64,000 bases of DNA from an uncultured Clostridia bacterium (GCA_937992055.1 CALKLQ010000041.1:23962-87961); one strand, 5' to 3'. Positions 10,771-52,406 are shown, counted from the first letter of the stretch. Notes: generated by a model not told the origin, from the sequence alone. Translations and numbers: made by a program.

Positions 10771-11026
10771 ATTTCCTCATGTATTTAATAATTTTAAAGT
10801 AAGAACCAGTAAATTTTTTTATAATAAAAACTTTGCTAGTTTATTTAAATTTAAAAGTAATTTTACATTTTTTATAATATCATAAAAAGATAAAAATAAC
10901 AAACAAACATTCTACTTTCAAAATTAAAAATGTATATAAAAGTTTTTACGAGTTTTAAAGATAACCTTAAACAATTTACTTGACAAAGTAAACAAGTTAT
11001 AATAAACTATTATAGTTTAAATGTGC

Positions 11027-11065
11027 GGGCTGTTAGCTCAGTTGGTAGAGCAACTGACTCTTAAT
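11027..11065 (+). pseudogene. 5' half of a disrupted chromosomal tRNA-Lys(CUU); attL
   Basis: GGGCTGTTAGCTCAGTTGGTAGAGCAACTGACTCTTAAT ends in the anticodon loop and is followed by unrelated sequence. Joined to 23837..23873 it gives a perfect 76-nt cloverleaf ending in CCA. Confidence 0.9.
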
Positions 11066-11086: not shown

Positions 11087-11162
11087 GGGTCATTAGCTCA
11101 GTTGGCAGAGCACTTGACTCTTAATCAAGGTGTCCGGGGTTCGAGCCCCCGATGACCCACCA
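11087..11162 (+). tRNA. tRNA-Lys (anticodon CUU), element-borne complete copy
   Basis: 76 nt: acceptor GGGTCAT/ATGACCC, D arm TAGCTCAGTTGGCAGAGCA, anticodon arm CTTGA-CTCTTAA-TCAAG, T arm CGGGG-TTCGAGC-CCCCG, encoded CCA. The sequence differs from the disrupted host copy. Confidence 0.92.
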
Positions 11163-11224: not shown

Positions 11225-11324
11225 TGACCCTTATTTTACAACTTTTTACTAAAAAAAATTGCTAAAATTTAGACTTTTTTTCGACTACTTTTTTTCGACC
11301 TTTACAAGGGTCAAACAAGGGTCA
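11225..11324 (+). repeat. AAGGGTCA motif cluster (candidate integrase arm-type sites), attL side
   Basis: CAAGGGTCAAACAAGGGTCA at 11305-11324 overlaps the integrase stop codon. An inverted copy TGACCCTT lies at 11225-11232. The same 20-mer recurs at 23770-23789. Confidence 0.55.
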
Positions 11325-12332
11325 ATTTTGCAACTCTATATAATAATCATTATATAGCTTTTTAATTTTTTCTAAAATTTTTGTTTTATCTTCGTAAACA
11401 ACGATATTTGTATATATATCCATAGTGATTCCAATTTCAGAATGTCCCATGTTCATTTGAACTTGTTTTGCCGGAGTTCCTAAATAATATTGATTAGTAG
11501 CATAACTATGTCTAAGACAATGTAACGTTCCTGTAATATTCAACTCCGCAAGATAATCTTTGAACATGTGAGTAACGTAGCTTCCGTTATAGTTAAAAAT
11601 CTTTCCTTCTTTATAAATTAAATTTTTTAAATTTTCTGTTATTCTTATAAATCTATCGGCATTATCTGTTTTGGTTCCCTTTATATGGATAACATTATTG
11701 TTTTTAAAATCTTTGGAAGTCAATGTCAAAGCCTCACTCCTTCTCACTCCTGTTGCTAAATAGAAAAGTATTAGTTTGTAATGTTCATAGTTTGTTTGCT
11801 TTATTTTTGATAATAATTTTTCTTGCTCTTCTATTGTAAAAGCTTTTCTGACATTTTTGATTTTTTTATCTTTAACAACAAGCTTGAACGGGTTCTTTTT
11901 AATAAATTCCAAATCTTCAGCTTTTTGCAAACAGGCATTGAAATATGTAATAATAAGTTCCTTTGTTCTTGTTTTTGGAAGTTTATTTAAATATGGTTGT
12001 AAATTATTTATGGTTATCTCATCAAGATTGTAATTTCCAAAATTTTTAACTATGTAATTTTTTAATAAGCTTTGAATCTCTCTCCCCGTTTGTTCTGCGA
12101 CAAAAGGTTTTTTGTAATTGTCAAACCAAAAGTCCGCCCACGTTTTTAATTTATATATGCAATTCGTTGTTTTGTTCTTTTTTTCCTTCTGCTCTTTTTT
12201 TAGAGCTTTTATTTTTTCATCTCTTTTTTTAACCAGCTTTGACCTATCTTTTGAGTAAACTGAGTATTGTTTAGAATCAAAATAAAATCTAAGTTCAAAT
12301 CTGTTATCTTTTCTATATCTTATTGTAGACAT
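11322..12332 (-). CDS. int: tyrosine recombinase / phage integrase
   Basis: 336 aa. Catalytic blocks ATGVRRSEALTL (Arg), HCLRHSYATNQY (H-x-x-R) and GHSEIGITMDIYTNI (His...Tyr). AGGAGGAGG RBS. Sits beside the split tRNA. Confidence 0.92.
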   Translation of the reverse strand: MSTIRYRKDNRFELRFYFDSKQYSVYSKDRSKLVKKRDEKIKALKKEQKEKKNKTTNCIYKLKTWADFWFDNYKKPFVAEQTGREIQSLLKNYIVKNFGNYNLDEITINNLQPYLNKLPKTRTKELIITYFNACLQKAEDLEFIKKNPFKLVVKDKKIKNVRKAFTIEEQEKLLSKIKQTNYEHYKLILFYLATGVRRSEALTLTSKDFKNNNVIHIKGTKTDNADRFIRITENLKNLIYKEGKIFNYNGSYVTHMFKDYLAELNITGTLHCLRHSYATNQYYLGTPAKQVQMNMGHSEIGITMDIYTNIVVYEDKTKILEKIKKLYNDYYIELQN

Positions 12333-12540
12333 TTCCTCCTCCTTTATTATTTCAGAGTCGGAATTTCCTTTTATAAATGGGTTAGCCTCCCTAATTAACC
12401 TTGTAATTTGTGACCTTTTTCTTTCTTTTACTCCTTGTTTAAAGGCTAAAAATTCATTGCCACTTTTTAAAATATAATTATGAATGTTATTTGCTAATTG
12501 TTGAAAAATTTTTTAATTCTTCCATTATCTCTCTCATTTC

Positions 12541-12885
12541 TTAAATTTTCTTTAGTTTAAATGATTCACTTCTACCGCTTAAGCCTGACAAATAAATTTC
12601 GGCAGTATTTAATAAGTCTTCGTCTAATTGCAATATCATGTCGATACAATTTTTCTGTTGTTCAGTGTACTGCGTTTTAAAAGCTATTTCTTGTTTGACT
12701 TCATTGCCTATTAAATAATCAACAGACACATTAAAATAATTCGCAAGTTTTATAAGAGTTCTTATATCAGGTTCTCTTATGTTATTTTCCCATTTTGATA
12801 TAAGCGTTTGTTTGTATCCAGTAATTTTTGCAATATCTTTTTGTGTTTTTTTATTAATCTTTCGCAATTCTTTAATTTTTAACAT
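12541..12885 (-). CDS. XRE-family HTH regulator (cI-like repressor candidate)
   Basis: 114 aa. N-terminal HTH TQKDIAKITGYKQTLISKWENNIREPDIRTLIKLANYFNVSVDYLIG. Divergent from the + strand early genes. Confidence 0.8.
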   Translation of the reverse strand: MLKIKELRKINKKTQKDIAKITGYKQTLISKWENNIREPDIRTLIKLANYFNVSVDYLIGNEVKQEIAFKTQYTEQQKNCIDMILQLDEDLLNTAEIYLSGLSGRSESFKLKKI

Positions 12886-12951
12886 TTTTTCCTCCTTAAA
12901 ATTAACTTAACACTATTAGTAATAATTTTTTAATATTTTTAATAAAAATAG

Positions 12952-12996
12952 TTGACAAAACGGAATATTTTTCATATATTAATAATAAATATTCCT
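12952..12996 (+). promoter_or_regulatory. sigma-A-type promoter with candidate operator
   Basis: TTGACA (12952-12957), 17-nt spacer, TATATT (12975-12980). The perfect 9-bp inverted repeat GGAATATTT (12962-12970) / AAATATTCC (12988-12996) brackets the -10 box. Confidence 0.5.
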
Positions 12997-13044
12997 ATTA
13001 GGATTATCCTTAAGGTAATCATTAGGAATTTCAAGGAGGTAAAA

Positions 13045-13284: not shown

Positions 13285-13454
13285 AAACAATGTACATTTT
13301 AAAAACAAGCACTTCAAAATTCGTATTTACAGATTTAGAAATGGCTATGAAAAAATTCTATGACTACGAAACTTTGGGACTTCCTGCGAAGGTTATTAAA
13401 TCTGAAGTAGGCTTATTAAATGAAAAACAAACAGTTCTTCACTGTTCTGTATAA
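13281..13454 (+). CDS. hypothetical protein (57 aa)
   Basis: Below the track size cut-off. ATGA start/stop overlap with the previous gene. Reads MKTMYILKTSTSKFVFTDLEMAMKKFYDYETLGLPAKVIKSEVGLLNEKQTVLHCSV. Confidence 0.4.
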   Translation: MKTMYILKTSTSKFVFTDLEMAMKKFYDYETLGLPAKVIKSEVGLLNEKQTVLHCSV

Positions 13455-13463: not shown

Positions 13464-13484
13464 AAATTTAAGTAAATCTATAGT

Positions 13485-13724
13485 TTAAATTTTTAAACTC
13501 TTTAAAAGTTCTTTTCTTTTCTCTTCTGTATCTATTTCTAATAGTTCATCGGCGGAAATATCAAAAATAACAGACATTTTTCTAAGATTATCAAAATCTG
13601 GTTTTAACCTTCCCTTTTCCCATAAAGAAACTGTGTCTTGTGAAACATTAAATAGCTTTCCAAATTGAGTTTGATTGAGTTTATTTAAATTTCTATATTC
13701 TTTTATTATTTGATAATATTTCAT
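13485..13724 (-). CDS. XRE-family HTH regulator (small, Cro/cI-type)
   Basis: 79 aa. NQTQFGKLFNVSQDTVSLWEKGRLKPDFDNLRKMSVIFDISADELL is a canonical XRE HTH. Confidence 0.8.
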   Translation of the reverse strand: MKYYQIIKEYRNLNKLNQTQFGKLFNVSQDTVSLWEKGRLKPDFDNLRKMSVIFDISADELLEIDTEEKRKELLKSLKI

Positions 13725-13785
13725 GAATTAATTATATACTAAAGTTTTTGGTATTTAAAAATAACGAAAAATAGTCGTAAAATAA

Positions 13786-13814
13786 TTGACTTACGAATAT
13801 AATTAGTATATAAT
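13786..13814 (+). promoter_or_regulatory. near-consensus sigma-A promoter of the long + strand operon
   Basis: TTGACT (13786-13791), exactly 17 nt, TATAAT (13809-13814). About 300 nt upstream of the first ORF. Confidence 0.65.
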
Positions 13815-13844
13815 ACGAAGAAAGTTAGTAAATAACCACAAATA

Positions 13845-13886
13845 AAAAACAAACAGTGTTGCACTGTTCTGTATAAAGAGCGAATG
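13845..13886 (+). repeat. ~41-bp direct repeat, copy B
   Basis: AAAAACAAACAGTGTTGCACTGTTCTGTATAAAGAGCGAATG. Hairpin AACAGTG/CACTGTT. Lies just downstream of the promoter. Confidence 0.8.
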
Positions 13887-14118: not shown

Positions 14119-14415
14119 ATGAATGAATTTATGAGTAAAGGTATAGTCATTGGAAAACAAGAAAGTTATGAGTACGAAGGAAAAACATATTACAAACTTC
14201 CATTATTATTAGGTGTTCCTGATTCGGACGGCCATTTTACTGATAAAGCTGTTGTAGGTTCTGCTAAAGGACAAACTCCAATTTTAAAAGATGAAGAAAT
14301 ATATTTTGGGGCACCAATAATGTGCACAGTGAATGTTAAAACTTTTGATGGCAAAACAACTTATGTTTGCTCTGACGTTCAAATTCTAGAAAAAAAAACA
14401 AAAGTAGAAAAATAG
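14119..14415 (+). CDS. hypothetical protein (98 aa); ssDNA-binding role is only a positional guess
   Basis: First gene of the operon, with an AGAAGG RBS. Small and beta-rich-looking, no TM segment. No motif recognised. Confidence 0.5.
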   Translation: MNEFMSKGIVIGKQESYEYEGKTYYKLPLLLGVPDSDGHFTDKAVVGSAKGQTPILKDEEIYFGAPIMCTVNVKTFDGKTTYVCSDVQILEKKTKVEK

Positions 14416-14462: not shown

Positions 14463-14681
14463 ATGGCATATAAAAATTCTAATGGTGATGAACAGTTTAC
14501 ATTAAAAGAGAAAATTGATTATCACAATTCTTGTGCTAACACGGGAAAAACACCTAGCGGTGAAAAACTTTCTTTTAGTGAAAGATATAATCACATGCAA
14601 GCTTCTGCTAGATGTCGTCGCAAATTAGGTACATTTATGAAAACGGTTAATGTTGTAAATTCAACTAATAAGAAAAAATAA
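14463..14681 (+). CDS. hypothetical protein (72 aa)
   Basis: AAGGAG RBS. Basic C-terminus, no TM segment. Confidence 0.5.
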   Translation: MAYKNSNGDEQFTLKEKIDYHNSCANTGKTPSGEKLSFSERYNHMQASARCRRKLGTFMKTVNVVNSTNKKK

Positions 14682-14832
14682 GTTAAAAATAATTTAATAA
14701 GCTGTAAGCCCTAGCCTACTGACTAGGCACAAAAATTGTAGCTTAAGCAATTTTTAAATTTAATAATTAAAATCGAAACTTAAACTAGCTGTGTTGTACT
14801 CATGGCTAGTTTTGTTTCTTAAAAGGAGAAAA

Positions 14833-16932
14833 ATGAAAAAAGTTTTTAAAATTTTGTTATGGATATTATTAATAATTTTTATTCTTTTTTTAATTGCTGA
14901 TTTGCTTTTTGTTATTAAAGAAAAATTAAATTGGAATTTTAGTTTTGGTGAAAATAAAACTTATGAAAAAGAAAAACTCGAAAATGGTTTAACAACGCAA
15001 ATAAATGGTGATTTAACAAAAGAAGAAATTGAAAAGGAAAAAAATGATATTGAAGCACCTTTGCATGATGATATTTTTAAAGATTTTTTAATTTGTGAAA
15101 CTGGCGATTATGTAATAATTTATCGTAAAGTAGAAACAAATGGAAAAATTATTTTTCCAAACTTGTCATTTATTAAAACTGCTAATAATTTACAATTTGA
15201 CGGAACTTTAGGCTTGACTGCTGAAATTGGGACTAATTGGTGGACTGGCGCTCATGATTTCAATAATATAAGGTTTACTTATGATTACTCAGGAAATTTT
15301 AATTATGATAAAAAAATGAGTTGGAATACTGATTGGAAAAATATTTTTGTTTTAGGAATTAAAGGTTTTTTGACTGATATAGGTTCGCAAGACAACTTTG
15401 TTTCATTTCGTAATTTTACTGAAAAATTTTGTAATAACTTTTGGAATATGAATGTTTTTGCTAAAATCGCAATGAATAAACAAAGTGAATTAAATAAACT
15501 ACATGATGTTACAAAAAAATATATCTATCAAAATATTTTGCCTTATTTTCAAAATCTTAATGATAATATTGAGTTTATTATGCCTGATAAAAATTTATCA
15601 ACAGATGTGCGTTTAAGTCAAATAATGAGCTTAACGAATTCATATGCTACATATCTTTGGAAAACAGTTAAAACATCAAATAAGTCAGAAAGTTTTAAAA
15701 ATGTTAATATTTCAAGTTTTTTTGCAAAATTTATTTATGACGAAAATATTTATAAACAATATCCAATACCAGAAAACAAAAAATCTGAATATCCGAATCA
15801 AGAATATTACAAAGTTTATAATTGTCAAATTTTTGCTTCGTGTAGCTATAAATATTTTGATATAGATTTGCCGGGTGAGCCGGTTGTTGATGATGATTAT
15901 GTAGTGGTTTTGCCTCCAGAAGATAATAAAGAATATTGTAAAGTTACAATCAAATTAAAAAATTCTAACTCTTCTGATTTAACTAATTTTATAATTAGTG
16001 AACAACCTGTAAAAATTTCAATTGCTGGTAAAGACCTTGTTTTTGATAGCTTAGAAAAATTAAATTATGGTTGCACTATTGCTTTAGAACAATCTAAGAC
16101 TTATTCCTATTCAATTTTAAGTAATGGTTTGATTTTTGAAAGTTATTCTGGAAATTTTTATATTCAAAATGAAAATTCAACAATTGTAAATTTTAATTAT
16201 ACTTATCAATACGGTTATGCTCTTTGTAAAATTATGCTTCATCCTGTTGGTGAAATTGATTTATCTCAAGTTGATTTGATTAATAACCCTGTAATTATTA
16301 ATTTGAAAAGTAAGGTTAATAACTATAATTATACCTTAACATTTAATTCTTTGGATAAATTTAATAATGGAATTAGCCAATTAATTCATTTAGGTGAATA
16401 TACTTATACGATTTCAAGTCAAGTTTTAAGTTTCTCTCCAGGCAATGGGGATATTAATGTTACAACAGAAAATAGATATTTTAATTTTACTTATACTCAA
16501 ATTACCTCATTTAATTTTTCTTTTAATTGTACAATTGACCAATTTGAGAAGGTACCAGCAGAAACAGATCCAATAAAAGAACATGAGTCTGTGTATTTAA
16601 AGGTTTGTGGACTTGACTTAAATTCTCAGTCTTCGTTTTCATTTTTGGAAAATGTTTTTGGCGAAAGCCTTACAATTTCTTTAATAGTTTTTAAAAACAC
16701 AACTCAAATTGTTTCTTATGGAACTTTTCTATTAGGAACAAACTTAAATGGAAATTGTTTCCGGTCTCTACCAAGTGGCTTTAAAACTTTGGAAAACGGC
16801 GAAACATATACTATTCAATTTATTTTTAATTCTGAAGTAAACACTGGTGTAAGTTATTCAAGTCCTCCAATAGAGTTTACTTATGCAACTTATAAAATTT
16901 CAAGGTTTAATATAACCTTGCAAGAAATTTAA
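14833..16932 (+). CDS. large N-terminally membrane-anchored Asn-rich surface protein
   Basis: The ATG at 14833 follows AAAGGAG, whereas the track start at 14791 is upstream of that RBS. Signal-anchor KILLWILLIIFILFLIADLLFVI, then about 670 aa with no recognised family. Confidence 0.7.
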   Translation: MKKVFKILLWILLIIFILFLIADLLFVIKEKLNWNFSFGENKTYEKEKLENGLTTQINGDLTKEEIEKEKNDIEAPLHDDIFKDFLICETGDYVIIYRKVETNGKIIFPNLSFIKTANNLQFDGTLGLTAEIGTNWWTGAHDFNNIRFTYDYSGNFNYDKKMSWNTDWKNIFVLGIKGFLTDIGSQDNFVSFRNFTEKFCNNFWNMNVFAKIAMNKQSELNKLHDVTKKYIYQNILPYFQNLNDNIEFIMPDKNLSTDVRLSQIMSLTNSYATYLWKTVKTSNKSESFKNVNISSFFAKFIYDENIYKQYPIPENKKSEYPNQEYYKVYNCQIFASCSYKYFDIDLPGEPVVDDDYVVVLPPEDNKEYCKVTIKLKNSNSSDLTNFIISEQPVKISIAGKDLVFDSLEKLNYGCTIALEQSKTYSYSILSNGLIFESYSGNFYIQNENSTIVNFNYTYQYGYALCKIMLHPVGEIDLSQVDLINNPVIINLKSKVNNYNYTLTFNSLDKFNNGISQLIHLGEYTYTISSQVLSFSPGNGDINVTTENRYFNFTYTQITSFNFSFNCTIDQFEKVPAETDPIKEHESVYLKVCGLDLNSQSSFSFLENVFGESLTISLIVFKNTTQIVSYGTFLLGTNLNGNCFRSLPSGFKTLENGETYTIQFIFNSEVNTGVSYSSPPIEFTYATYKISRFNITLQEI

Positions 16933-16956
16933 AAAAAAATAAAAGGAGATAAAAAA

Positions 16957-17190
16957 ATGGATAAAACAAAAATTATATGGACTTCAATATTTGGAGTTGT
17001 TGGAGTAATAGTCGCAACAATATTAATGTGGCTTTGCTTGTATTTAATCGTTCCAAACATAAAGGACGGAACTGATAAACTCTTCAAATGGAATGATTAC
17101 GCTGTGGAGCAAGAGCAAGACGATATCACAGAAACAACTCAAAACTCCCCTAATACTGAAAATATTGAAGTTATAACACCCGCAAATTGA
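16957..17190 (+). CDS. small membrane protein (77 aa)
   Basis: AAGGAG RBS. One long hydrophobic segment IIWTSIFGVVGVIVATILMWLCLYLIV and an acidic C-terminal tail. Confidence 0.6.
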   Translation: MDKTKIIWTSIFGVVGVIVATILMWLCLYLIVPNIKDGTDKLFKWNDYAVEQEQDDITETTQNSPNTENIEVITPAN

Positions 17191-17198
17191 GGTGTTAT

Positions 17199-18770
17199 AT
17201 GAAAAGAAATATTATTTTAATTAGTTGCTCAATTTTAATATTGGCAACAATGGTTTATGGAATTTACATTAAAAATCAAGAAAAAATAAATACTGATTTA
17301 ACAATGCAAAACAACACTTTGATTTTGCAAATAGACTCGACTGTTGATAGATTAAATAAACTACAAGAAGACTATGACCTACTTAAGCAAACTCATGAGA
17401 GCACACTTGCTCAGTTAGATAAAGAACGTAGACAATTTGACTTTGACAGACAAAGATTTACTGAACAAGTGGAAAACTTGAGAGGTCAAGTTTTGGAATT
17501 ATCATTAAACAAAATAGAAAATGAAGAGAGAATAGCAGAACTAGAAGCTGAAATAGAAGACTTAAACCAACAAATAGCAAATTTAGATGCTCAAATTTTA
17601 GCTTTAGAAACTGAAAATGCCGGACTACTTTCAAGTGTTAATAATTATGAAACTCAGATTTCAAACTTGAATGGTCAAATTGACGATATGGTCGCAGAGT
17701 TCAATGCCAAAAATGAACTTTGGCAAAAACTAATTAATGGAACTATTACAGAAATTACCGCAGAAGACCTTGAAGGTGTGACTGAAATTAGACCATATGC
17801 TTTTTACGATTGTCAAACTCTTAGGTCTATAGAATTTTCTAATACAATTACAAAAATTGGTTCGAGTGCATTTTATCAATGTAGTCTTTTGTCTTCAATA
17901 GAAATTCCTGATAATGTAACAACTATTGGGGCTAATGCTTTTTTAAATTGTTTTAATCTTTCCTCAATTAAACTTTCTGATAATCTATCAAATATTCCTA
18001 ATAGTGCTTTCGCAGGTTGTAATAAACTTACTTCAATTGCAATTCCTGATAGTGTTTCAAGTATTAGTTATGAAGCTTTTCAATCTTGTTCGAAATTAAA
18101 CTCTGTTACTTTTGGTGATAATAGCGAACTTACTCAAATTGGTGCTTATGCTTTTCGTTCTTGCGGTAATTTAAATAATGTTATTCTTCCAGTTGCCCTG
18201 ACAAGTATAGGAAACGGTGCTTTTTCGAAATGTTCAAGCTTATCAACAATTAATATTCCAAATAGCGTAACAACTATTGACGCTAATGTTTTTTCTGAAT
18301 GTACCAGTTTGACGTCAATTAAACTTCCTAATAATATAACAAAAATTAGTAGTAATCTTTTTGGAAAGTGTAGTGGTTTGACTTCTATAGAAATTCCTAA
18401 TAATGTGACGATTATTGAAACTGATTCTTTTCAATATTGTACAAATTTATCATCAATAAATATTCCAAATACTGTTACATCTATTGGTCTTCGTGCATTT
18501 TATTATTGTTCTAGCCTTATTTCAATTGAAATTCCTGATAGTGTTGCAAGTATGGATGGACATATATTTTTTGGTTGTTCAAATGAGCTATCAATTATAA
18601 TGAAACGTTCGACTCCTCCTACATGTGCTAATGTTTTATATGGTTTCTATGGAAAAGTCTATGTTCCAGATTCGGCTTTAGAAAGTTATAAAACATCTCC
18701 TGGTTGGTCAGATAAAGCTTCAATAATTTATTCAGTCAGTGAATACGAGGCATTGCAAGAAGTAGCATGA
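17199..18770 (+). CDS. membrane-anchored coiled-coil + BspA-type leucine-rich-repeat protein
   Basis: ATG at 17199 follows GAGG. N-terminal anchor, then a ~150 aa heptad-rich segment (LELSLNKIENEERIAELEAEIEDLNQQIANLDAQILALETEN). About 12 repeats follow of I-x-I-P-x-x-V-T-x-I-G-x-x-A-F-x-x-C-x-x-L-x-S, the LRR_5/BspA type. Confidence 0.8.
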   Translation: MKRNIILISCSILILATMVYGIYIKNQEKINTDLTMQNNTLILQIDSTVDRLNKLQEDYDLLKQTHESTLAQLDKERRQFDFDRQRFTEQVENLRGQVLELSLNKIENEERIAELEAEIEDLNQQIANLDAQILALETENAGLLSSVNNYETQISNLNGQIDDMVAEFNAKNELWQKLINGTITEITAEDLEGVTEIRPYAFYDCQTLRSIEFSNTITKIGSSAFYQCSLLSSIEIPDNVTTIGANAFLNCFNLSSIKLSDNLSNIPNSAFAGCNKLTSIAIPDSVSSISYEAFQSCSKLNSVTFGDNSELTQIGAYAFRSCGNLNNVILPVALTSIGNGAFSKCSSLSTINIPNSVTTIDANVFSECTSLTSIKLPNNITKISSNLFGKCSGLTSIEIPNNVTIIETDSFQYCTNLSSINIPNTVTSIGLRAFYYCSSLISIEIPDSVASMDGHIFFGCSNELSIIMKRSTPPTCANVLYGFYGKVYVPDSALESYKTSPGWSDKASIIYSVSEYEALQEVA

Positions 18771-19612
18771 AAAACAAAGTAACAACTATTACATACTCAG
18801 ATTACGTTAAATATTTAACTGCCAAGCCATATGGAATAAATATTATATTTGGCCAAAAGGGCTCCGGTAAAACGGCATTAAACACTGTCTTTGGACTTTG
18901 GGAAATGGCAATGAGACAACGATACTTACAATGCTTATCTGAGATTGAGCTTTTAAAAGAGGAAAGGGTGCGTGAGTACTCTTCCCCTCCTCAAGCTCAC
19001 TGCGTTTTTACAAGTCCTAACTATTCCATAGTAGACAACTGGAAATTTGGAAGAGGCAAGAAAACATCATATTCATATAACCCCTATCATTTCAATATTC
19101 CAAACATGCGTATTGAGTATGATATTTATCCACCATATTCAACTTTCCATTGCATGGAAGCCCAAGCACCTTTAAATTCCAGGCAATCAAAGAACTTCCC
19201 TTCCGAAACCTCTAGAGCCTATGAAAATGAACGTCATCCAAACTATTTGATTTGGCTAGACTGCCAAAGGTTAGGCTTGGTCGATTTAAACGTTAGAGAA
19301 ATAACGGACTGGTTCATAACTCCAATTGCCCTGGAGCATAAATATAATTCTCTCAATGTAATGACTGGAACAATCTTTCATACCCTTTGCTTTGACAGCC
19401 TTTTAAAAGCAGAAAGATATGTTGAAACTGAGGATATTTTTCTAGGCAAACTTGTAGATTTCGTTTTCGAAGGCGGTTGCGTTTTTAATTGCTACTCCTC
19501 TTTTGGTAATAAAAAAATCTTTTTTGAAACTGATAAAGACTTTGAATACGTTAGCAGTCAAGACCCAAATTCTGCCTCGCTTTTAGCACCAAAAAATTAT
19601 TATAAAGGATAA
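18767..19612 (+). CDS. Zot/pI-like P-loop NTPase (candidate morphogenesis ATPase)
   Basis: 281 aa. Walker A GQKGSGKTA. FHCMEAQ and ERHPNYLIWLDCQ align by eye with the DEAQ and HRHxGxD-hhh-TQ blocks of the Zot family. ATGA overlap with the upstream gene. Confidence 0.6.
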   Translation: MKNKVTTITYSDYVKYLTAKPYGINIIFGQKGSGKTALNTVFGLWEMAMRQRYLQCLSEIELLKEERVREYSSPPQAHCVFTSPNYSIVDNWKFGRGKKTSYSYNPYHFNIPNMRIEYDIYPPYSTFHCMEAQAPLNSRQSKNFPSETSRAYENERHPNYLIWLDCQRLGLVDLNVREITDWFITPIALEHKYNSLNVMTGTIFHTLCFDSLLKAERYVETEDIFLGKLVDFVFEGGCVFNCYSSFGNKKIFFETDKDFEYVSSQDPNSASLLAPKNYYKG

Positions 19613-19617
19613 GAACT

Positions 19618-20085
19618 ATGATACTTAAATTTGAAAGTTTAGAAGAATTAAATAACTACTATTATGACCAACTTAACACCCTCGCCTTTAATTCTCAAAA
19701 TTTTAATAATGCTATCACTTCAATGTTCGAGAAAAACATTTTAAAAGCTTACAAGGCTTCATTTTTGGAACTGACCGCAGACGATAACTTTATCTCAAAA
19801 TATAATTTGAAAAAAGTTAAATACCTACGCAAGCAATTCATTTTAAAATACAAGCTCGAAAAGAAAAAGTTTAAAGCAATATTAAAATTAAGCTCCAAGA
19901 AAGAAAAACGTAAATTAAGAGCATTTATTAAACAGTCTAAAAAACAGGCAAAACAAAAACTTAAAGTAGAGCGAAAAGAAAAACGTCAAATCTTCTTTTC
20001 AAACCTCAAACAAAAACGCAAAGCTCGTTGGGCTAAGTTTATTCAAATCTTTAAAAGGAAAAAACATGAGAAAAAAACAAAATAA
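19618..20085 (+). CDS. hypothetical Lys/Arg-rich protein (155 aa)
   Basis: The C-terminal 90 aa are mostly K/R (KKKFKAILKLSSKKEKRKLRAFIKQSKKQAKQKLKVERKEKRQ...). Confidence 0.55.
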   Translation: MILKFESLEELNNYYYDQLNTLAFNSQNFNNAITSMFEKNILKAYKASFLELTADDNFISKYNLKKVKYLRKQFILKYKLEKKKFKAILKLSSKKEKRKLRAFIKQSKKQAKQKLKVERKEKRQIFFSNLKQKRKARWAKFIQIFKRKKHEKKTK

Positions 20086-20413
20086 AAAACGATTTGCTAA
20101 AAATGAATTTCGTTATAATTATTATACTAAACATGAAAATTTTATTTTTGAAGAAGATGGTGATAATTTTCATTCTTTGGGGTTGACCCATAATAAGCAA
20201 ACAAAAGATAAAAATAAAAAATGGCATAAGAATATGCCATTAAATAAAAACCCTCAAAAGAATAAAACTGAAACATCTTATTTAAGATATGGAGTTATAA
20301 CTCAAAATAAAAAAACTTTTTCAAATAAACCTGATAAGCGCTTTGTTTTTGATGATAGTGATAAAGCAAGTGTAAAGTCAAAAATTAGAAATTATAAAAA
20401 AAAGAGAAAATAA
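20066..20413 (+). CDS. hypothetical Lys-rich protein (115 aa)
   Basis: Overlaps the previous gene by 20 nt. Basic at both termini. Confidence 0.5.
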   Translation: MRKKQNKKRFAKNEFRYNYYTKHENFIFEEDGDNFHSLGLTHNKQTKDKNKKWHKNMPLNKNPQKNKTETSYLRYGVITQNKKTFSNKPDKRFVFDDSDKASVKSKIRNYKKKRK

Positions 20414-20474: not shown

Positions 20475-20538
20475 TGTAATTATTATATTCTATTTAACTA
20501 AAATTTGTCAACATTTTTTTATAAAAAAAGGAAAAGTG

Positions 20539-21507
20539 ATGAAATACATAGATTTTCTTTTAAAAAAGAGATATTCAAGAAACGTTGTTATTCCTGCTTT
20601 AAAGAAGTTGGGTTTTGAAAATAAAGCCCAAAAACTTGAAGAATGTGGGAATTTTAAACGTTTAGCTGTTTGTAAAAAATGCGGTTGTATTCATTATAAC
20701 GGTGCAAATTCATGCAAAGACCGCTTTTGTCCTGTCTGCCAAAAGAAAAGAGCTTTACTTTGGATATTAAAAGTCTACCCTATTTTTGAAGATTTAATAA
20801 GCCGGGGGTATATAGTCAATTTCATAACTTTGACAGTTCCAGACGGTGACAATTTAAAAGAACGCTTGAATATTTTAAATAATTCTTTTAGATACATGCT
20901 TCATGAAAATTCAAAATCAAGATATTCTTTTAACAATATATATTTGGGTGGAATTCGTTCGCTAGAAGTTAAAAAAGGCAGATTCTCTAATCTTTGGCAT
21001 CCCCACCTTCATATGCTTGTCGTAAAAAAAATAAAGACAGATTTTAGAGAAGATAGAAAACTTTTAACTGAAGCTTGGGCAAATGCCTTAACAAAAACAA
21101 CTGGTATTTATCATTCACCGCAAAAGGTAATTATAGACATTAAAAGTTTGTATCTTGTAGACAAAATAACGGGTCAAAAAAAATACTCTAAATTTGCTAT
21201 TCTAAAGGCTTGTTTGGAAGTCTTTAAATATTTAGTGAAATCAAATTTTGAAGAACTAGCATGTAAAGAACTTATAAAAACCATGTCTAGTATTCGCGGA
21301 ATTAACCCTTGGGGAAACGTCCGCTATCTTCTCCACGACAAAAATATTGAATTAACTATTGAACATGAATTAGACATGTCAGAAAATGAACTAAGTGATA
21401 AAGTCTGTGCAATATGCGGAAACGATGATTTTATTCAAATTAAAAATGTTGGCGTGTATGGTCAAAAAATTTATGATTTAAAAAATAAAAAAACGGAGGT
21501 AAACTGA
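20539..21507 (+). CDS. rep: rolling-circle replication initiator, pC194/Rep_1 (HUH) family
   Basis: Cys cluster CKKCGCIHYNGANSCKDRFCPVCQKKRALLW, HUH motif WHPHLHMLVV and catalytic Tyr motif LEVFKYLVKS. The ATG at 20539 lies one codon inside the track GTG start. Confidence 0.88.
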   Translation: MKYIDFLLKKRYSRNVVIPALKKLGFENKAQKLEECGNFKRLAVCKKCGCIHYNGANSCKDRFCPVCQKKRALLWILKVYPIFEDLISRGYIVNFITLTVPDGDNLKERLNILNNSFRYMLHENSKSRYSFNNIYLGGIRSLEVKKGRFSNLWHPHLHMLVVKKIKTDFREDRKLLTEAWANALTKTTGIYHSPQKVIIDIKSLYLVDKITGQKKYSKFAILKACLEVFKYLVKSNFEELACKELIKTMSSIRGINPWGNVRYLLHDKNIELTIEHELDMSENELSDKVCAICGNDDFIQIKNVGVYGQKIYDLKNKKTEVN

Positions 21508-21508
21508 A

Positions 21509-21874
21509 ATGGCAAAATATATTGAACAATATAAAGCGGAAATTCAAGCATATGAGAGTGCTAAAATAAAAGCTGAAAATGCGGTTTTTAAATATGCGGT
21601 AATTACCCGCATGCTTTTTAATCGTTTGAAATTTATGGTGTCAAAAATCGATGATTGCAAATCTACCCTATTTTTAAAAATTAAAGAAAGTGGTTTGTAT
21701 GAAAACTTTGATGATGAAATAAATGATGTAATTTTTAGAATAGATTATTTGAGAGAAACTTTAAAAGGTGTAATTGATTCGGAAATAGGAAAAGACATAA
21801 TAAAATTAATAGATACTCCTGCCTTTAATCATAAGATAAATAAATTAAAGGAGATTATAGATAATGAAGTCTGA
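21509..21874 (+). CDS. hypothetical protein (121 aa)
   Basis: Starts 1 nt after the rep stop. Helical-looking, no family recognised. Confidence 0.5.
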   Translation: MAKYIEQYKAEIQAYESAKIKAENAVFKYAVITRMLFNRLKFMVSKIDDCKSTLFLKIKESGLYENFDDEINDVIFRIDYLRETLKGVIDSEIGKDIIKLIDTPAFNHKINKLKEIIDNEV

Positions 21875-22718
21875 ACAAGATTCTATAACTAGAAACACCC
21901 TTATAACTTTATTTAATTCTTTTGATGAGGATATCTCTTCAGAAGAAACAATTTCTTCTTTTGAAGAAGAGAAAAAACGTGTACAAGGTTGTCTTCGAAT
22001 GATACAATCAAATTTTGTTCGTCTTGGTTGGCATTTGAAGAAACTAAAAGAGGAATTTAAAGATAATATAACAAAAACATATTTTGAAGCTAGAGGTCAT
22101 TATTGTCGTAACATCTACGATTTTGCCCAACAAGAATTTAATTTGAGCAAATCTTCTGTTAAGAGATTAATTGCAATTGTAGATAAATTTTGTTTAAAAA
22201 ATGATATTGAACTAGTAGAATTAAAAGAAGAATTTAAGCCTTATTCATATTCTCAACTTTCTGAGATGTTGCCACTAAATAATGAACAGCTTTCAAAGGT
22301 TAATTCTGCTATGTCAAAAAGAGAAATAAGAGCTTTAGGGAAAAGTGGCCCGCCGGCGGGCCAAAAAATACAAAGTGAGGAAAATAGCGGTATTCAGCGA
22401 TTTTACAAGTTAAAAAATAAGGATATTCGCTTAAATTTTTTAAAAAACTATCGCAAATGGACCTTAAAAGCAAAGGTTGAAAATCTAAGCTTATACATCT
22501 ATTCTTGCCCACTTTCAAATGGAGATTTAATGTTAATGTTTGAAACAAGATATTTTAATTCAAGTTATGGTAAGGAAGCAGTTTCAAAACTTTTAACTTT
22601 CCAGCGAAAGCAAGATAACTGTATATGCTTGTTTGACACATCTCAAAGTGATTTTTTGCAAAAAATGATAAATCTAGACGTAGGCATTGACCCTGACGTT
22701 GTTTTATCTGATGACTAA
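21864..22718 (+). CDS. hypothetical protein (284 aa)
   Basis: Overlaps the upstream gene by 11 nt. Contains the GC palindrome at 22347-22362. No family recognised. Confidence 0.55.
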   Translation: MKSEQDSITRNTLITLFNSFDEDISSEETISSFEEEKKRVQGCLRMIQSNFVRLGWHLKKLKEEFKDNITKTYFEARGHYCRNIYDFAQQEFNLSKSSVKRLIAIVDKFCLKNDIELVELKEEFKPYSYSQLSEMLPLNNEQLSKVNSAMSKREIRALGKSGPPAGQKIQSEENSGIQRFYKLKNKDIRLNFLKNYRKWTLKAKVENLSLYIYSCPLSNGDLMLMFETRYFNSSYGKEAVSKLLTFQRKQDNCICLFDTSQSDFLQKMINLDVGIDPDVVLSDD

Positions 22719-23826: not shown

Positions 23827-23873
23827 GACTCTTAATCAGTGGGTCCGGGGTTCGAGTCCCCGACAGCCCACCA
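23827..23873 (+). pseudogene. 3' half of tRNA-Lys(CUU), copy 1; attR of the 12.8 kb element
   Basis: GACTCTTAATCAGTGGGTCCGGGGTTCGAGTCCCCGACAGCCCACCA. Completes the 5' half at 11027-11065. Confidence 0.9.
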
Positions 23874-23876
23874 CTC

Positions 23877-23902
23877 AAACCCTTATTTTATAAGGGTTTT
23901 TT
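23877..23902 (+). terminator. terminator after tRNA 3' half copy 1
   Basis: AAACCCTTA-TTTTA-TAAGGGTTT plus a T run. Same stem as the terminator at 11166-11192, with the loop inverted. Confidence 0.7.
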
Positions 23903-24135
23903 ATAACATAAAACTGAACATATAAAATGCCCAGCATGTTAAATATAATTTTTTCTTCTTTTAAATAGTTTTAATACAACTAAATAGATTGTTTATTAAC
24001 GGGAATTAAATTTTTCCCTCTACTTATATAGGGAGTAGTAATACACTAAACCTAGTTTTAGTTAGATATTTAAGGGAGTGTAGAGATTTGTAAGAACAAA
24101 TTTTTATTTGAAATTTAATAGTTTTATAATTTTAT

Positions 24136-24162
24136 ATAAAAAAACCTGCAATTTTGCAGGTT
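24136..24162 (-). terminator. rho-independent terminator for 24192..24716
   Basis: Minus strand reads AACCTGCA-AAAT-TGCAGGTT followed by TTTTTTT. Confidence 0.7.
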
Positions 24163-24191
24163 AATTTTTATTAAATTGAAGGTTCATCATC

Positions 24192-24716
24192 TTATCTTGA
24201 CATTCCATCTAAAATTTCGTCTTCTTTTTGTTTTTGAGTTATGTAGCTTTTATCATTAAAAATTTTTTCAAAATCTTTTAACTGTTTTATTGATACTTTA
24301 TTTTTGTCACCAATTAGTTTTTTTACAATATTATTTTTTATAATAAGATTATCAATAAACCAAAAACCCGAAATAAATTCTTCTAAAGTTTTCGCTTCAT
24401 AATTATCTATTCTAGTTTTTGCGAGTGCATAATCGTAGTAACCGTTCCAACCATTAGCGTCATAGCTATAATCATTTTTAGCAAGTTCTTCTTCTTCATC
24501 TTCTTTTGTTACTGCATTAGTAGTTATAGTGTTATTAGAAACATAATATGCTTTTCTTGGTTTATTAGGACTTACAATTGCAATATTATATTGTAATATG
24601 TCCATCATTTCCTCATCACCATCTCTATCAATGACAGGTTCTTCTCCAACTTTTGTTAGAACAACATAAACATTATCTAAATTTACTAATGTTTCATCAT
24701 TAAATTTATTTACCAT
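24192..24716 (-). CDS. hypothetical acidic protein (174 aa)
   Basis: The ATG at 24716 follows AAGGAG, whereas the track start at 24737 is upstream of that RBS. No family recognised. Confidence 0.55.
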   Translation of the reverse strand: MVNKFNDETLVNLDNVYVVLTKVGEEPVIDRDGDEEMMDILQYNIAIVSPNKPRKAYYVSNNTITTNAVTKEDEEEELAKNDYSYDANGWNGYYDYALAKTRIDNYEAKTLEEFISGFWFIDNLIIKNNIVKKLIGDKNKVSIKQLKDFEKIFNDKSYITQKQKEDEILDGMSR

Positions 24717-24950
24717 ATTAATACTCCTTATTAACAATAATATAACATTTAAACTTCGTCATGTCAATAGGGGTGAAAGATTAATTTTATTATATGCACT
24801 TAATCTTTCCTAATAAAAACAAAATTTTCTAATAATACTAAGAAAACTTGAACGATTTTTATACTATATAACACGAGTTTTGTGAGTGATATAAGAGGTT
24901 TTAAGGGCTTTGATAACACGAAAAACACTATCAAAAACTTTTATTTTGCT

Positions 24951-24995
24951 TCTCTTAATCAGTGGGTCCGGGGTTCGAGTCCCCGACAGCCCACC
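24951..24995 (+). pseudogene. 3' half of tRNA-Lys(CUU), copy 2 (orphan)
   Basis: CTCTTAATCAGTGGGTCCGGGGTTCGAGTCCCCGACAGCCCACCA, identical to 23829-23873. Followed by its own terminator AAACTAGG-TAAT-CCTAGTTTTTTT. Confidence 0.9.
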
Positions 24996-25079
24996 ACAAA
25001 ACTAGGTAATCCTAGTTTTTTTAATATAAAAAAAGCCCATAAGAGCTTTTTATTTAATTTATGTTTTAAAAATTTAATG

Positions 25080-51365: not shown

Positions 51366-52406
51366 ATGAAAACAATAGTATTGACAGGTGGAGGAAGCGC
51401 TGGACACGTAACACCAAATCTTGCACTTATCCCACAGCTACAAAAACATTTTGATAATATTTGTTACATAGGTACAAATGGCATTGAAAAAACATTAGTT
51501 GAATCTGCCCATCTTCCATTTTATGAAATAGAAGCATTTAAGCTTGAGCGAAAACTCACATTTAAAAATCTACTTTTGCCTTTTAAGCTTTTTAAAACAA
51601 TCAAACAAGCAAAGAACCAATTAAGAAAAATTTCTCCCGATGTAGTATTTTCAAAAGGAGGATATGTTTCTCTGCCTGTAGTTATTGCCGCAAAAAAATT
51701 AAAAATACCAGTAATTTCGCATGAAAGCGATATTTCTATGGGACTTGCTAACAAAATTATTTTGAGATATGCAAATTGTGTTTGCACCAGTTTCTCCTCA
51801 ACTGCTGAAAAAAATAAAAAGTGTATCTATACTGGCTCTCCTGTAAGACCTCAAATAAAACAAGGCAAGTCATATATAGCACGAAAAATAACTGGCATAG
51901 ACAATCAAAGGAAAACAATAATGTTCTTTGGAGGCAGTTTAGGCGCCGAGGCAATCAATAATTTTGTATTTAGCTGTTTAGATGAATTGTTGCTGGAATA
52001 TAATGTCATTCACATTACAGGTAAAAATTGCCAAACCCAAATTCATAAACCAAATTATTATTCTTGTAAATATACCAATCAAATAGAGCATTTTTTTGCA
52101 TTATCAGATGTTGTAATTTGCCGTGCAGGTTCAAACTCGATTTTTGAATTATTATGCATAAAAAAACCAATGATACTTATACCTTTGCCTAAAAAGGCAT
52201 CTAGAGGAGACCAAATTGATAATGCAAAATATTTCGAAAAGCATGGATATGCAAAAGTTATTTGGCAAGAAGATTTAAATAAAAGCAACTTTTTAAAAAC
52301 TTTAAATTCAATGAATTTAGAAAACATAAGCCAAAAACTTTCATCATCTAATTTGACCAATGGCAATGAAAATATTGTTAAACAAATTTTAAAATATATC
52401 AAATAG
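51366..52406 (+). CDS. murG: undecaprenyldiphospho-muramoylpentapeptide beta-N-acetylglucosaminyltransferase (MurG)
   Basis: 346 aa. TGGGSAGHVTPNLALIP, SHESDISMGLANKI and ASRGDQIDNAKYF closely resemble streptococcal-type MurG blocks. Confidence 0.8.
   Translation: MKTIVLTGGGSAGHVTPNLALIPQLQKHFDNICYIGTNGIEKTLVESAHLPFYEIEAFKLERKLTFKNLLLPFKLFKTIKQAKNQLRKISPDVVFSKGGYVSLPVVIAAKKLKIPVISHESDISMGLANKIILRYANCVCTSFSSTAEKNKKCIYTGSPVRPQIKQGKSYIARKITGIDNQRKTIMFFGGSLGAEAINNFVFSCLDELLLEYNVIHITGKNCQTQIHKPNYYSCKYTNQIEHFFALSDVVICRAGSNSIFELLCIKKPMILIPLPKKASRGDQIDNAKYFEKHGYAKVIWQEDLNKSNFLKTLNSMNLENISQKLSSSNLTNGNENIVKQILKYIK

Follow-up and report, generated by a model that had tools for sequence, protein, structure and literature searches.

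The window analysed here is a stretch of 64,000 nucleotides (nt) of DNA from an uncultured Clostridia bacterium (GCA_937992055.1 CALKLQ010000041.1:23962-87961). It contains an island of about 12.7 kb, which lies between a tRNA-Lys(CTT) gene (11087-11162, +; called by ARAGORN and Rfam), the integration site on the attL side, and an 87%-identical copy of the 3' part of the same tRNA with a downstream hairpin (attR, 23827-23902, +; direct-repeat family D2). Within the island, three genes follow one another: the first (14833-16932) encodes a 699-amino-acid (aa) protein, the second (16957-17190) a 77-aa single-pass membrane protein, and the third (17199-18770) a 523-aa protein with a coiled coil and leucine-rich repeats (LRRs). 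Immediately downstream is the gene (18767-19612) for a 281-aa stand-alone P-loop ATPase similar to Zot and pI, and all four genes are on the + strand. The subject of this report is the three-gene cassette upstream of the ATPase and its possible role as the surface module of a filamentous-phage-like element.

The 523-aa protein is of the type-II anchored kind, with a transmembrane segment at residues 5-23 and no C-terminal anchor. In residues 26-185, the heptad a/d enrichment is 0.57, compared with 0.27 in shuffled sequences (z = 7). A coiled coil rises by 0.15 nm per residue, and about 160 residues would therefore span about 22 nm. Beyond this stalk lie eleven clean 23-residue repeats of the form AFxxCxxLxSIxIP (residues 201-455) and one degenerate repeat (to about residue 470), closed by a C-terminal cap, and the protein matches the Pfam family LRR_5 (PF13306) with 275 bits against a cutoff of 27.7 (E-value 8.4e-83). 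The original prediction for this locus, which a model had made from the sequence, described an N-terminal anchor, about 150 aa of heptads, and about 12 BspA-type LRRs, and this description was borne out. As the start codon, the ATG at 17199 is preferable to the TTG at 17187 because a GAGGTG Shine-Dalgarno sequence precedes the ATG. A PHROG match of residues 12-81 to an "Rz-like spanin" was rejected and is ascribed to the generic make-up of a transmembrane segment plus a coiled coil.

The 699-aa protein, also type-II anchored, has one hydrophobic segment near residues 7-25, no C-terminal anchor, and a mild enrichment in asparagine (10.6%, compared with 6.4% in nine host genes). It matches nothing in Pfam or PHROG, and none of 60 family members scanned with Pfam has a match. 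The family profile gave a single insignificant match among the PDB sequences, and tblastn of the protein against 50,697 phage records gave none. It belongs to an unannotated family; clustering at 50% identity divides this family into about 120 clusters, and almost all lengths are 660-740 aa. An AlphaFold model built with five sequences had a predicted local distance difference test score (pLDDT) of 44 and was set aside; an alignment of 60 family members was used instead and gave a pLDDT of 86.5 and a predicted template-modelling score (pTM) of 0.74. This model consists of a 31-residue N-terminal helix (aa 2-32), a linker, an alpha/beta domain (about 75-345), and a series of beta-sandwiches (about 368-698). 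With Foldseek, the C-terminal part of about 330 residues matches 1D2P (Cna B repeats), 4OQ1 (a streptococcal ancillary pilin), and 6FWV (Bacillus anthracis TIE), and further matches are fibronectin type III (FN3) arrays and phage baseplate, tail-collar, and fibre proteins. Because the template-modelling scores are low (0.1-0.3), the resemblance to immunoglobulin (Ig)-like domains is one of domain type only. The Foldseek run on the model reported no match for the alpha/beta domain. The distal half of the protein is thus modelled as a tandem Ig-like stalk or array, which came to light through the structure prediction and remote homology search that had been proposed as a check. It had been predicted that this protein would be asparagine-rich, with a single N-terminal anchor and no recognisable domain; the open reading frame (ORF), the anchor, and a mild asparagine excess were found, and the lack of a domain holds for the sequence but not for the AlphaFold model.

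The 77-aa protein has a transmembrane segment at residues 14-32 and contains 11 D/E and 5 K/R residues, with the acidic residues in the C-terminal tail, in agreement with the predicted single hydrophobic segment and acidic rather than basic tail. In its weakly basic 13-residue N-terminus, the lysines K3 and K5 are the only charged basic residues. The transmembrane segment is followed by a conserved extracytoplasmic motif, P33..D37.T39.K41.FKW.DYA.E51, and then by the variable acidic tail. An operational criterion for the major coat proteins of inoviruses is a length of 30-90 aa with one or two transmembrane domains (Roux et al. 2019, PMC6813254), and the 77-aa protein falls within these limits. 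Because it is the sole conserved small transmembrane protein of the element, it is the only candidate for a coat subunit.

The 281-aa ATPase taken alone gave no Pfam match at an E-value of 10 or below and no PHROG match. A search with its family profile yields 125 proteins (250-310 aa), mostly annotated as PF05707; the Pfam Zot family (PF05707) is matched by 36 of 40 relatives, and the Walker A sequence GQKGSGKT (residues 29-36) is invariant in the family alignment. The profile also matches the solved Zot N-domain (PDB 2R2A) with an E-value of 4.6e-10 across the Walker-B/(D)EAQ...HRH.G.D...Q region. This transitive membership of PF05707, together with the 2R2A match, supports the Zot-like context that had been proposed, and, as judged from sequence, the protein is a divergent Zot of the stand-alone kind. 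Lacking any hydrophobic segment, it does not share the architecture of Ff-type pI (a transmembrane segment plus an extracytoplasmic C-domain); a stand-alone Zot domain has been described as a typical trait of gut inoviruses of Firmicutes (PMC8530359). Among the 50,697 phage records, tblastn with the ATPase found one match, the annotated Zot of bajarodino virus 12 (PQ006185), a circular 9.8-kb genome from rodent faeces deposited as Inoviridae. It should be mentioned that the Walker B aspartate is replaced (residues 129-133, 19151-19165): the close family has hhhMEAQ (MEAQ in the window), distant stand-alone Zots have LSEVQ, and the canonical form is DEAQ, the glutamate and the glutamine being invariant among the Zot sequences compared.

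The original prediction placed all three genes immediately upstream of the Zot-like gene and regarded them as translationally coupled to it. The position is correct. The coupling holds only for the LRR and Zot genes, which share an ATGA overlap (18767-18770), whereas 24 nt separate the 699-aa gene from the 77-aa gene and 8 nt the 77-aa gene from the LRR gene, and at both junctions the downstream gene has its own Shine-Dalgarno sequence.

Relatives of the element were found in other samples, and eight contexts, namely the window and the contigs L002, L004, L005, L006, L008, L019, and L020, have enough flanking sequence for comparison. In all eight, the genes for the 699-aa protein, the 77-aa protein, the LRR protein, Zot, and a basic protein of about 150 aa occur in the same order, with identities of 30-99%. 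The shared order begins with an integrase and a helix-turn-helix (HTH) repressor and continues with small soluble proteins, a hairpin, a protein of about 690 aa, a transmembrane protein of 74-108 aa, a transmembrane/coiled-coil/LRR protein of 463-610 aa, Zot, a basic protein of about 135-158 aa, and Rep. The integration targets vary among these elements, being the 3' ends of different tRNAs. In L005, a phage-type REP_ORF2-G2P (11891-12997) stands in place of Rep_1 in an otherwise unchanged cassette context, which shows that the replication module has been exchanged. The architecture of transmembrane segment, coiled coil, and LRRs is present in every positional homologue of the 523-aa protein, and the repeat number varies by insertions and deletions of whole repeats. 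The terminal overlaps of L002 and L006 (28 and 24 nt) were considered as signs of circular episomes and rejected as such: they are tRNA 3' ends, i.e., cores of attachment sites, so that circular episomes are not proven.

Among 72,556 plasmid records, there was no match for Zot or the 699-aa protein. A scan of 185,579 species-representative genomes with exact peptide patterns from the Zot alignment, which covers Zot relatives only and may miss divergent ones, gave none outside such elements; a match in a metagenome-assembled genome of the Atopobiaceae was rejected as a spurious P-loop match. It had been stated in advance that homologues routinely found in chromosomes away from Rep and Zot would speak against the original prediction, and neither the plasmid records nor the genome scan, the latter limited to Zot patterns, produced any. 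In the phage collection, the family has a single relative, the distant Zot of bajarodino virus 12, and the LRR head alone matches unrelated gut-phage records. The other LRR_5 matches in that collection are tailed gut phages or unverified faecal contigs, and the four faecal LRR_5 contigs of about 11 kb that were examined lack both Zot and the 699-aa family and are therefore not relatives. The 699-aa family is also absent from the distant stand-alone-Zot loci L001, L009, and L011. In L009 and L011, the large proteins have hydrophobic segments at both the N- and C-termini, and in L011/L012 (4169-5518), the large protein upstream of Zot, in the equivalent position, carries Flg_new (the Listeria-Bacteroides repeat), a cell-surface binding repeat.

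The genes of the cassette diverge at different rates. In pairwise comparisons between elements, the 699-aa protein is 28-40% identical and the LRR protein 33-56%, compared with 57-68% for Zot and about 64% for Rep_1; in other words, the two large surface proteins are the fastest-diverging gene products of the element. A comparison of LRR variability among related elements had been suggested, and it revealed, besides the changes in repeat number, a head less conserved than the stalk: between the window and L006, the anchor plus stalk is 72% identical and the LRR head 45%. On this alignment, the two parts of the 523-aa protein appear to have separate histories. Between the window and its 99%-identical copy L008, the LRR gene has seven nonsynonymous and two synonymous codon changes, which are small numbers. 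In the same pair, the synonymous and nonsynonymous changes number 59 and 11 in Zot (7249-8094 in L008), 12 and 4 in the 77-aa gene (5439-5672 in L008), and 14 and 2 in the 155-aa gene that follows Zot, and the integrase, Rep, and right-end genes are identical. This clustering of differences looks like a recombination patch.

Directly ahead of the 699-aa gene, a terminator scan found a terminator- or attenuator-like 12-bp hairpin with a T-run (14782-14812, +). A hairpin with a T-run occurs at the matching position in L002, L005, and L006, with stems that differ in sequence. In Ff phages, a terminator divides the genes of high expression from the low-expression genes for minor coat and assembly proteins. 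The hairpin resembles this terminator and, by analogy, the 77-aa gene would then fall in a block of low expression. A second stem-loop lies further upstream of the 699-aa gene (14699-14734), and its flanks, CTGTAAG.CCT...AGGCACAAAA, are conserved in the window, L002, and L006. The two hairpins could represent an attenuator, or an origin or packaging signal.

What do these three proteins do? We consider, with a probability of about one half, that they form the particle-surface/adsorption module of an integrated, tRNA-targeting, rolling-circle, Tubulavirales-type element. Elements resembling filamentous phages can be recognised by a pI-like ATPase and a rolling-circle replication (RCR) initiator in a genome of less than 15 kb, with an optional integrase, and the island has all of these. 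A pIII-type gene can be recognised as a long gene in the structural block adjoining the pI gene, and such a gene is present in the window and in the seven related contigs. The recurrence of the cassette and the fastest divergence of its large proteins favour core proteins exposed on the particle and used in adsorption over cargo. Divergence above that of all other genes, exchange of the head as a module, and folds resembling adhesins or fibres are as expected of exposed proteins that interact with a host. From this combination, we infer the presence of the proteins in particles, their role in adsorption, and the coat role of the 77-aa protein. The original prediction saw the LRR protein as a host-recognition protein made of a stalk and a binding domain; the architecture of anchor, stalk, and LRR head was found, and cassette conservation and divergence strengthen the reading as a recognition protein.

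A possible mechanism is as follows. All three proteins would span the cell membrane, their N-termini lying in the cytoplasm and their C-termini outside the cell, and their N-terminal helices would pass into the particle during its assembly at the membrane, powered by the Zot ATPase. The 77-aa protein may be a membrane-helix subunit, either a repeating one or one associated with the tip, and its acidic tail would point outward. The two large proteins, namely the 699-aa one with its globular domain and Ig-like array and the 523-aa one with its stalk of about 22 nm and LRR head, would be exposed minor components, which would bind the surface of the next host and extend through its wall. Specificity would then be determined by the fast-evolving LRR head and Ig-like array.

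Several observations weigh against this proposal. Neither large protein has the cleavable signal and C-terminal anchor of the pIII type. The 77-aa protein has the wrong polarity for a coat protein, which should be basic at the C-terminus, toward the DNA, and acidic at the N-terminus, toward the outside, and it matches nothing in Pfam or PHROG, coat families included; these two databases revealed no canonical major coat protein in the element either. The position of the 77-aa gene downstream of the putative attenuator disfavours very high expression. Three lysine-rich soluble proteins of the element, described below, suggest another route for neutralising DNA. Finally, pattern-based scans of IMG/VR did not find the family. 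A point absent from the original prediction is that the anchoring polarity of all three proteins is opposite to that of the pIII and pVIII types.

The first alternative is that the cassette encodes cell-envelope egress machinery, i.e., a wall-spanning scaffold or conduit in the producing cell, which would tie the TM-less (transmembrane-segment-less) Zot to the membrane, lead the particle across the thick Gram-positive wall, and functionally replace the C-domain of pI and the secretin. A Zot without a transmembrane segment needs some membrane partner, the host appears to be walled (it encodes a MurG-like GT28 protein, 51366-52406), and both the coiled coil of about 160 residues and the Ig-like array have wall-spanning dimensions. 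The strict conservation of the cassette beside Zot, the overlap of the LRR and Zot genes, and the very uniform length of the 699-aa family would also suit a machine. On the contrary, the cytoplasmic parts of the three proteins are only 3-13 residues long, which leaves little for binding an ATPase; machinery is usually conserved, whereas the two large proteins diverge most; and an LRR binding head with a varying number of repeats is unexpected in a conduit. We regard this explanation as unlikely, though not negligible.

The second alternative is a pleomorphic membrane-bounded particle, similar to plasmaviruses or pleolipoviruses, in which lysine-rich proteins would condense the DNA, and a vesicle bearing the three type-II proteins on its surface would carry it out of the cell by budding or release. 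All three are simple ectodomain proteins with an N-terminal anchor, no canonical coat was found, and the three soluble lysine-rich proteins are conserved across the family. The plasmavirus L2 (L13696) has a comparable gene order, with similar size and integration at an attP site, and L2-related prophages of Acholeplasma sit in tRNA genes (PMC12662186). In the L2 block 9146-3715 (across the origin), ORF13-ORF14-ORF1-ORF2-ORF3-ORF4 encode a 738-aa Ig-like envelope protein (Bact_surface_Ig-like), a 238-aa envelope protein, a 591-aa protein, an 81-aa protein with two transmembrane segments, a 312-aa P-loop protein, and a 161-aa protein, an order like that of the stand-alone-Zot elements; the low guanine-plus-cytosine (GC) content, the genome size, and the site-specific integration are comparable to those of the window element as well. 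Homology to L2 was examined and rejected: the hidden Markov model (HMM) E-values were 0.04 or worse in a search of 14 ORFs only, and the hhalign probability was 4.9% and confined to the P-loop. Membership of the Plasmaviridae is defined by homology to L2 proteins, and none was detected for any of them. L2 ORF3 has no Pfam Zot match, and motifs of the type DEF...RHQG...SQ were seen in it by eye, without statistical support. In addition, Zot-family ATPases are otherwise linked to filamentous assembly, and the host seems to have peptidoglycan, which would hinder budding. L2 is also a double-stranded DNA virus with DnaA-box origins and no RCR Rep (PMC12662186), unlike the window element. A particle of this kind is, in our opinion, distinctly improbable.

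The third alternative, which the original prediction itself raised, is that the LRR and Ig-like proteins are lysogenic-conversion factors, displayed on the lysogen to alter adhesion or exclude superinfection and taking no part in particles or assembly. BspA-type LRR_5 and Ig-like arrays are typical of cell-surface adhesins (Pfam description; Foldseek matches to Cna, pilins, and TIE), and an N-terminal anchor suits display on a cell. Cargo genes (morons), however, are sporadic and lie outside the core operon, whereas the cassette recurs in all eight contexts, fixed within the morphogenesis operon and overlapping Zot. This fixed place, the overlap, and the lack of other candidate structural proteins argue against cargo, and the element would otherwise be left without any candidate adsorption or coat protein, so that we give conversion very little credence. 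Least credible of all is a non-viral integrative element of the mobilisable or conjugative plasmid type, in which Rep_1 would act as relaxase, the P-loop protein would pump the DNA, and the two surface proteins would be adhesins for mating: Rep_1 is an initiator of the plasmid type, the family was not seen in the IMG/VR pattern scans, and no coat protein is recognisable with Pfam or PHROG, but the ATPase belongs to the Zot family, a G2P Rep of the phage type accompanies the same cassette in L005, the plasmid records gave no match, and Pfam and PHROG scans found no genes for a type IV secretion system or coupling protein.

Among the other genes of the element, Pfam recognises those for a tyrosine integrase, for a pair of HTH repressors, and for a rolling-circle initiator of the Rep_1 family that carries a zinc ribbon. 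At the left end, the integrase (11322-12332, -; Phage_integrase, Phage_int_SAM_3) is followed by a cI-like HTH repressor (12541-12885, -; assigned as an ORF, with HTH_3 in its syntenic homologues). The second HTH gene (13485-13724) lies in a segment (13468-13844) that is bordered by 37-nt direct repeats (13418-13454 and 13840-13876) and is missing from L008. The rightward operon opens with a conserved 98-aa soluble protein (14119-14415, +; 65-72% identity in L002 and L006), for which searches of Pfam, PHROG, and PDB gave no match and which is possibly a single-stranded DNA-binding protein. Next comes the first of the three lysine/arginine-rich soluble proteins, of 72 aa (14463-14681, +), recognised by its composition; small basic proteins occupy the same place in L002, L005, and L006. 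The second, of 155 aa (19618-20085, +), always follows Zot and consists of a conserved N-domain, weakly similar to the post-Zot protein of the distant locus L009, and a lysine-rich tail (46 K/R). The third, of 115 aa (20066-20413, +), was likewise recognised by its composition. The K+R contents of the three are 19%, 30%, and 29%, and all related elements have counterparts. The initiator (20536-21507, +) matches Rep_1 with an E-value of 8.8e-23 and Zn_Tnp_IS91 in its N-terminal zinc ribbon. Two conserved genes without an assigned function, of 121 and 284 aa (21509-22718, +; PHROG 15077), form the right end and are syntenic in L002, L006, L008, and L019.

Further partial copies of the tRNA lie near both ends of the element. 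On the right, an extra segment of about 1.1 kb (23903-25025) separates attR from a weaker third copy of the tRNA 3' part (24950-25025); it contains a single 181-aa ORF (24192-24737, -) without a family match and may have been left by an earlier insertion or be a small satellite. On the left, directly upstream of the intact tRNA gene, a truncated tRNA-like copy (11024-11065), called by neither ARAGORN nor Rfam, is 83% identical to the 5' part of tRNA-Lys. The flanks of the island are ordinary chromosome, with genes for PFOR, GyrA/GyrB, PriA, RNase R, FloA, and the above-mentioned MurG-like protein. The host is thus an anaerobic, low-GC, gut-type bacterium of the Gram-positive kind, and the MurG-like gene is the reason why its wall appears to contain peptidoglycan.

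Inovirus-like prophages of Firmicutes with a stand-alone Zot are already known. In the literature and collections searched, we did not find a description of the cassette, its inverted anchoring, the 699-aa family, or a BspA LRR fixed in a Zot element. Because the family was found neither in the pattern scans of IMG/VR nor in plasmids, and because a single distant Zot was its only trace among phages, such elements are likely to be undercounted. To our knowledge, filamentous phages of Gram-positive bacteria are almost unstudied, both in how they recognise their hosts and in how, with no secretin, they get through a thick wall. The cassette supplies concrete candidates for these tasks: the 699-aa family, an acidic-tailed small membrane protein, and an LRR-on-stalk protein, all beside a Zot that has no membrane segment. 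Should these proteins belong to the particle, the LRR head would act as an exchangeable module of specificity that could serve to predict or re-target host range, and BspA-type LRRs, which are mainly known from cell-surface adhesins, would extend to a filamentous-phage-like element. A bolder speculation, which we consider rather doubtful, is a truly different particle architecture: a filamentous lineage whose structural polarity is inverted, or a lineage connecting Tubulavirales with plasmavirus-like particles bounded by a membrane. Every membrane-inserted particle protein would then be of type II (N-terminus in, C-terminus out) with no C-terminal anchor, the coat-like subunit would have its acidic C-tail outward and its short basic N-terminus inward, the soluble lysine-rich proteins would help to neutralise the DNA, and the stalked BspA LRR head would be the receptor-binding device.

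Comparison with known systems sets out what is shared and what is peculiar to the cassette. BspA-type LRR surface proteins (PF13306) share with the 523-aa protein 11-12 AFxxCxxLxSIxIP repeats and a TPP...YVP...Y...GW cap. In the 523-aa protein, by comparison, the LRRs are fused to an N-terminal transmembrane segment and a coiled coil, and its gene is a fixed member of a Zot/Rep element. The C-terminal part of the 699-aa protein has tandem beta-sandwiches in common with Cna-B, pilin, and FN3 stalks and with phage fibre decorations. Compared with the stalks of Gram-positive adhesins, it has no LPXTG motif and no sequence-level family, and its Ig-like array is distal to an unmatched 270-residue domain.

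In Ff/M13, pIII serves adsorption, and pVI and pVIII are coat proteins. In these phages and in Propionibacterium phage B5 (Orf5-Orf7; Paulinoviridae), the membrane-inserted structural genes lie directly upstream of pI/Zot, as they do in the window. Both arrangements combine one long with one or more short hydrophobic proteins, and both have a terminator-like hairpin before the low-expression block. The window proteins have no sequence similarity to their Ff and B5 counterparts. In B5 Orf6, a signal at the N-terminus is combined with a transmembrane segment at the C-terminus, whereas the large window proteins have an N-terminal anchor only, and the major coat protein B5 Orf5 has a basic C-terminus, whereas the 77-aa protein has an acidic tail.

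The closest parallels are the Firmicute gut inoviruses, including Clade-1 (Sugimoto et al. 2021, PMC8530359), the Enterocloster prophages (PMC10061712), and bajarodino virus 12, which have in common with the window element a TM-less Zot of about 260-290 aa, low-GC Firmicute hosts, a tRNA-targeting tyrosine integrase, and an RCR Rep, as well as long "minor coat" gene(s) and a small transmembrane gene adjoining Zot. The Zot-bearing Enterocloster prophages make DNase-protected filaments seen by transmission electron microscopy (PMC10061712). The window element differs in its size (12.7 kb, compared with 5.6-9.4 kb), in having two long genes, an LRR_5 protein, and no major coat protein recognisable by HMM, and in the position of the anchors, which are N-terminal in the window element and C-terminal in the Firmicute gut inoviruses.

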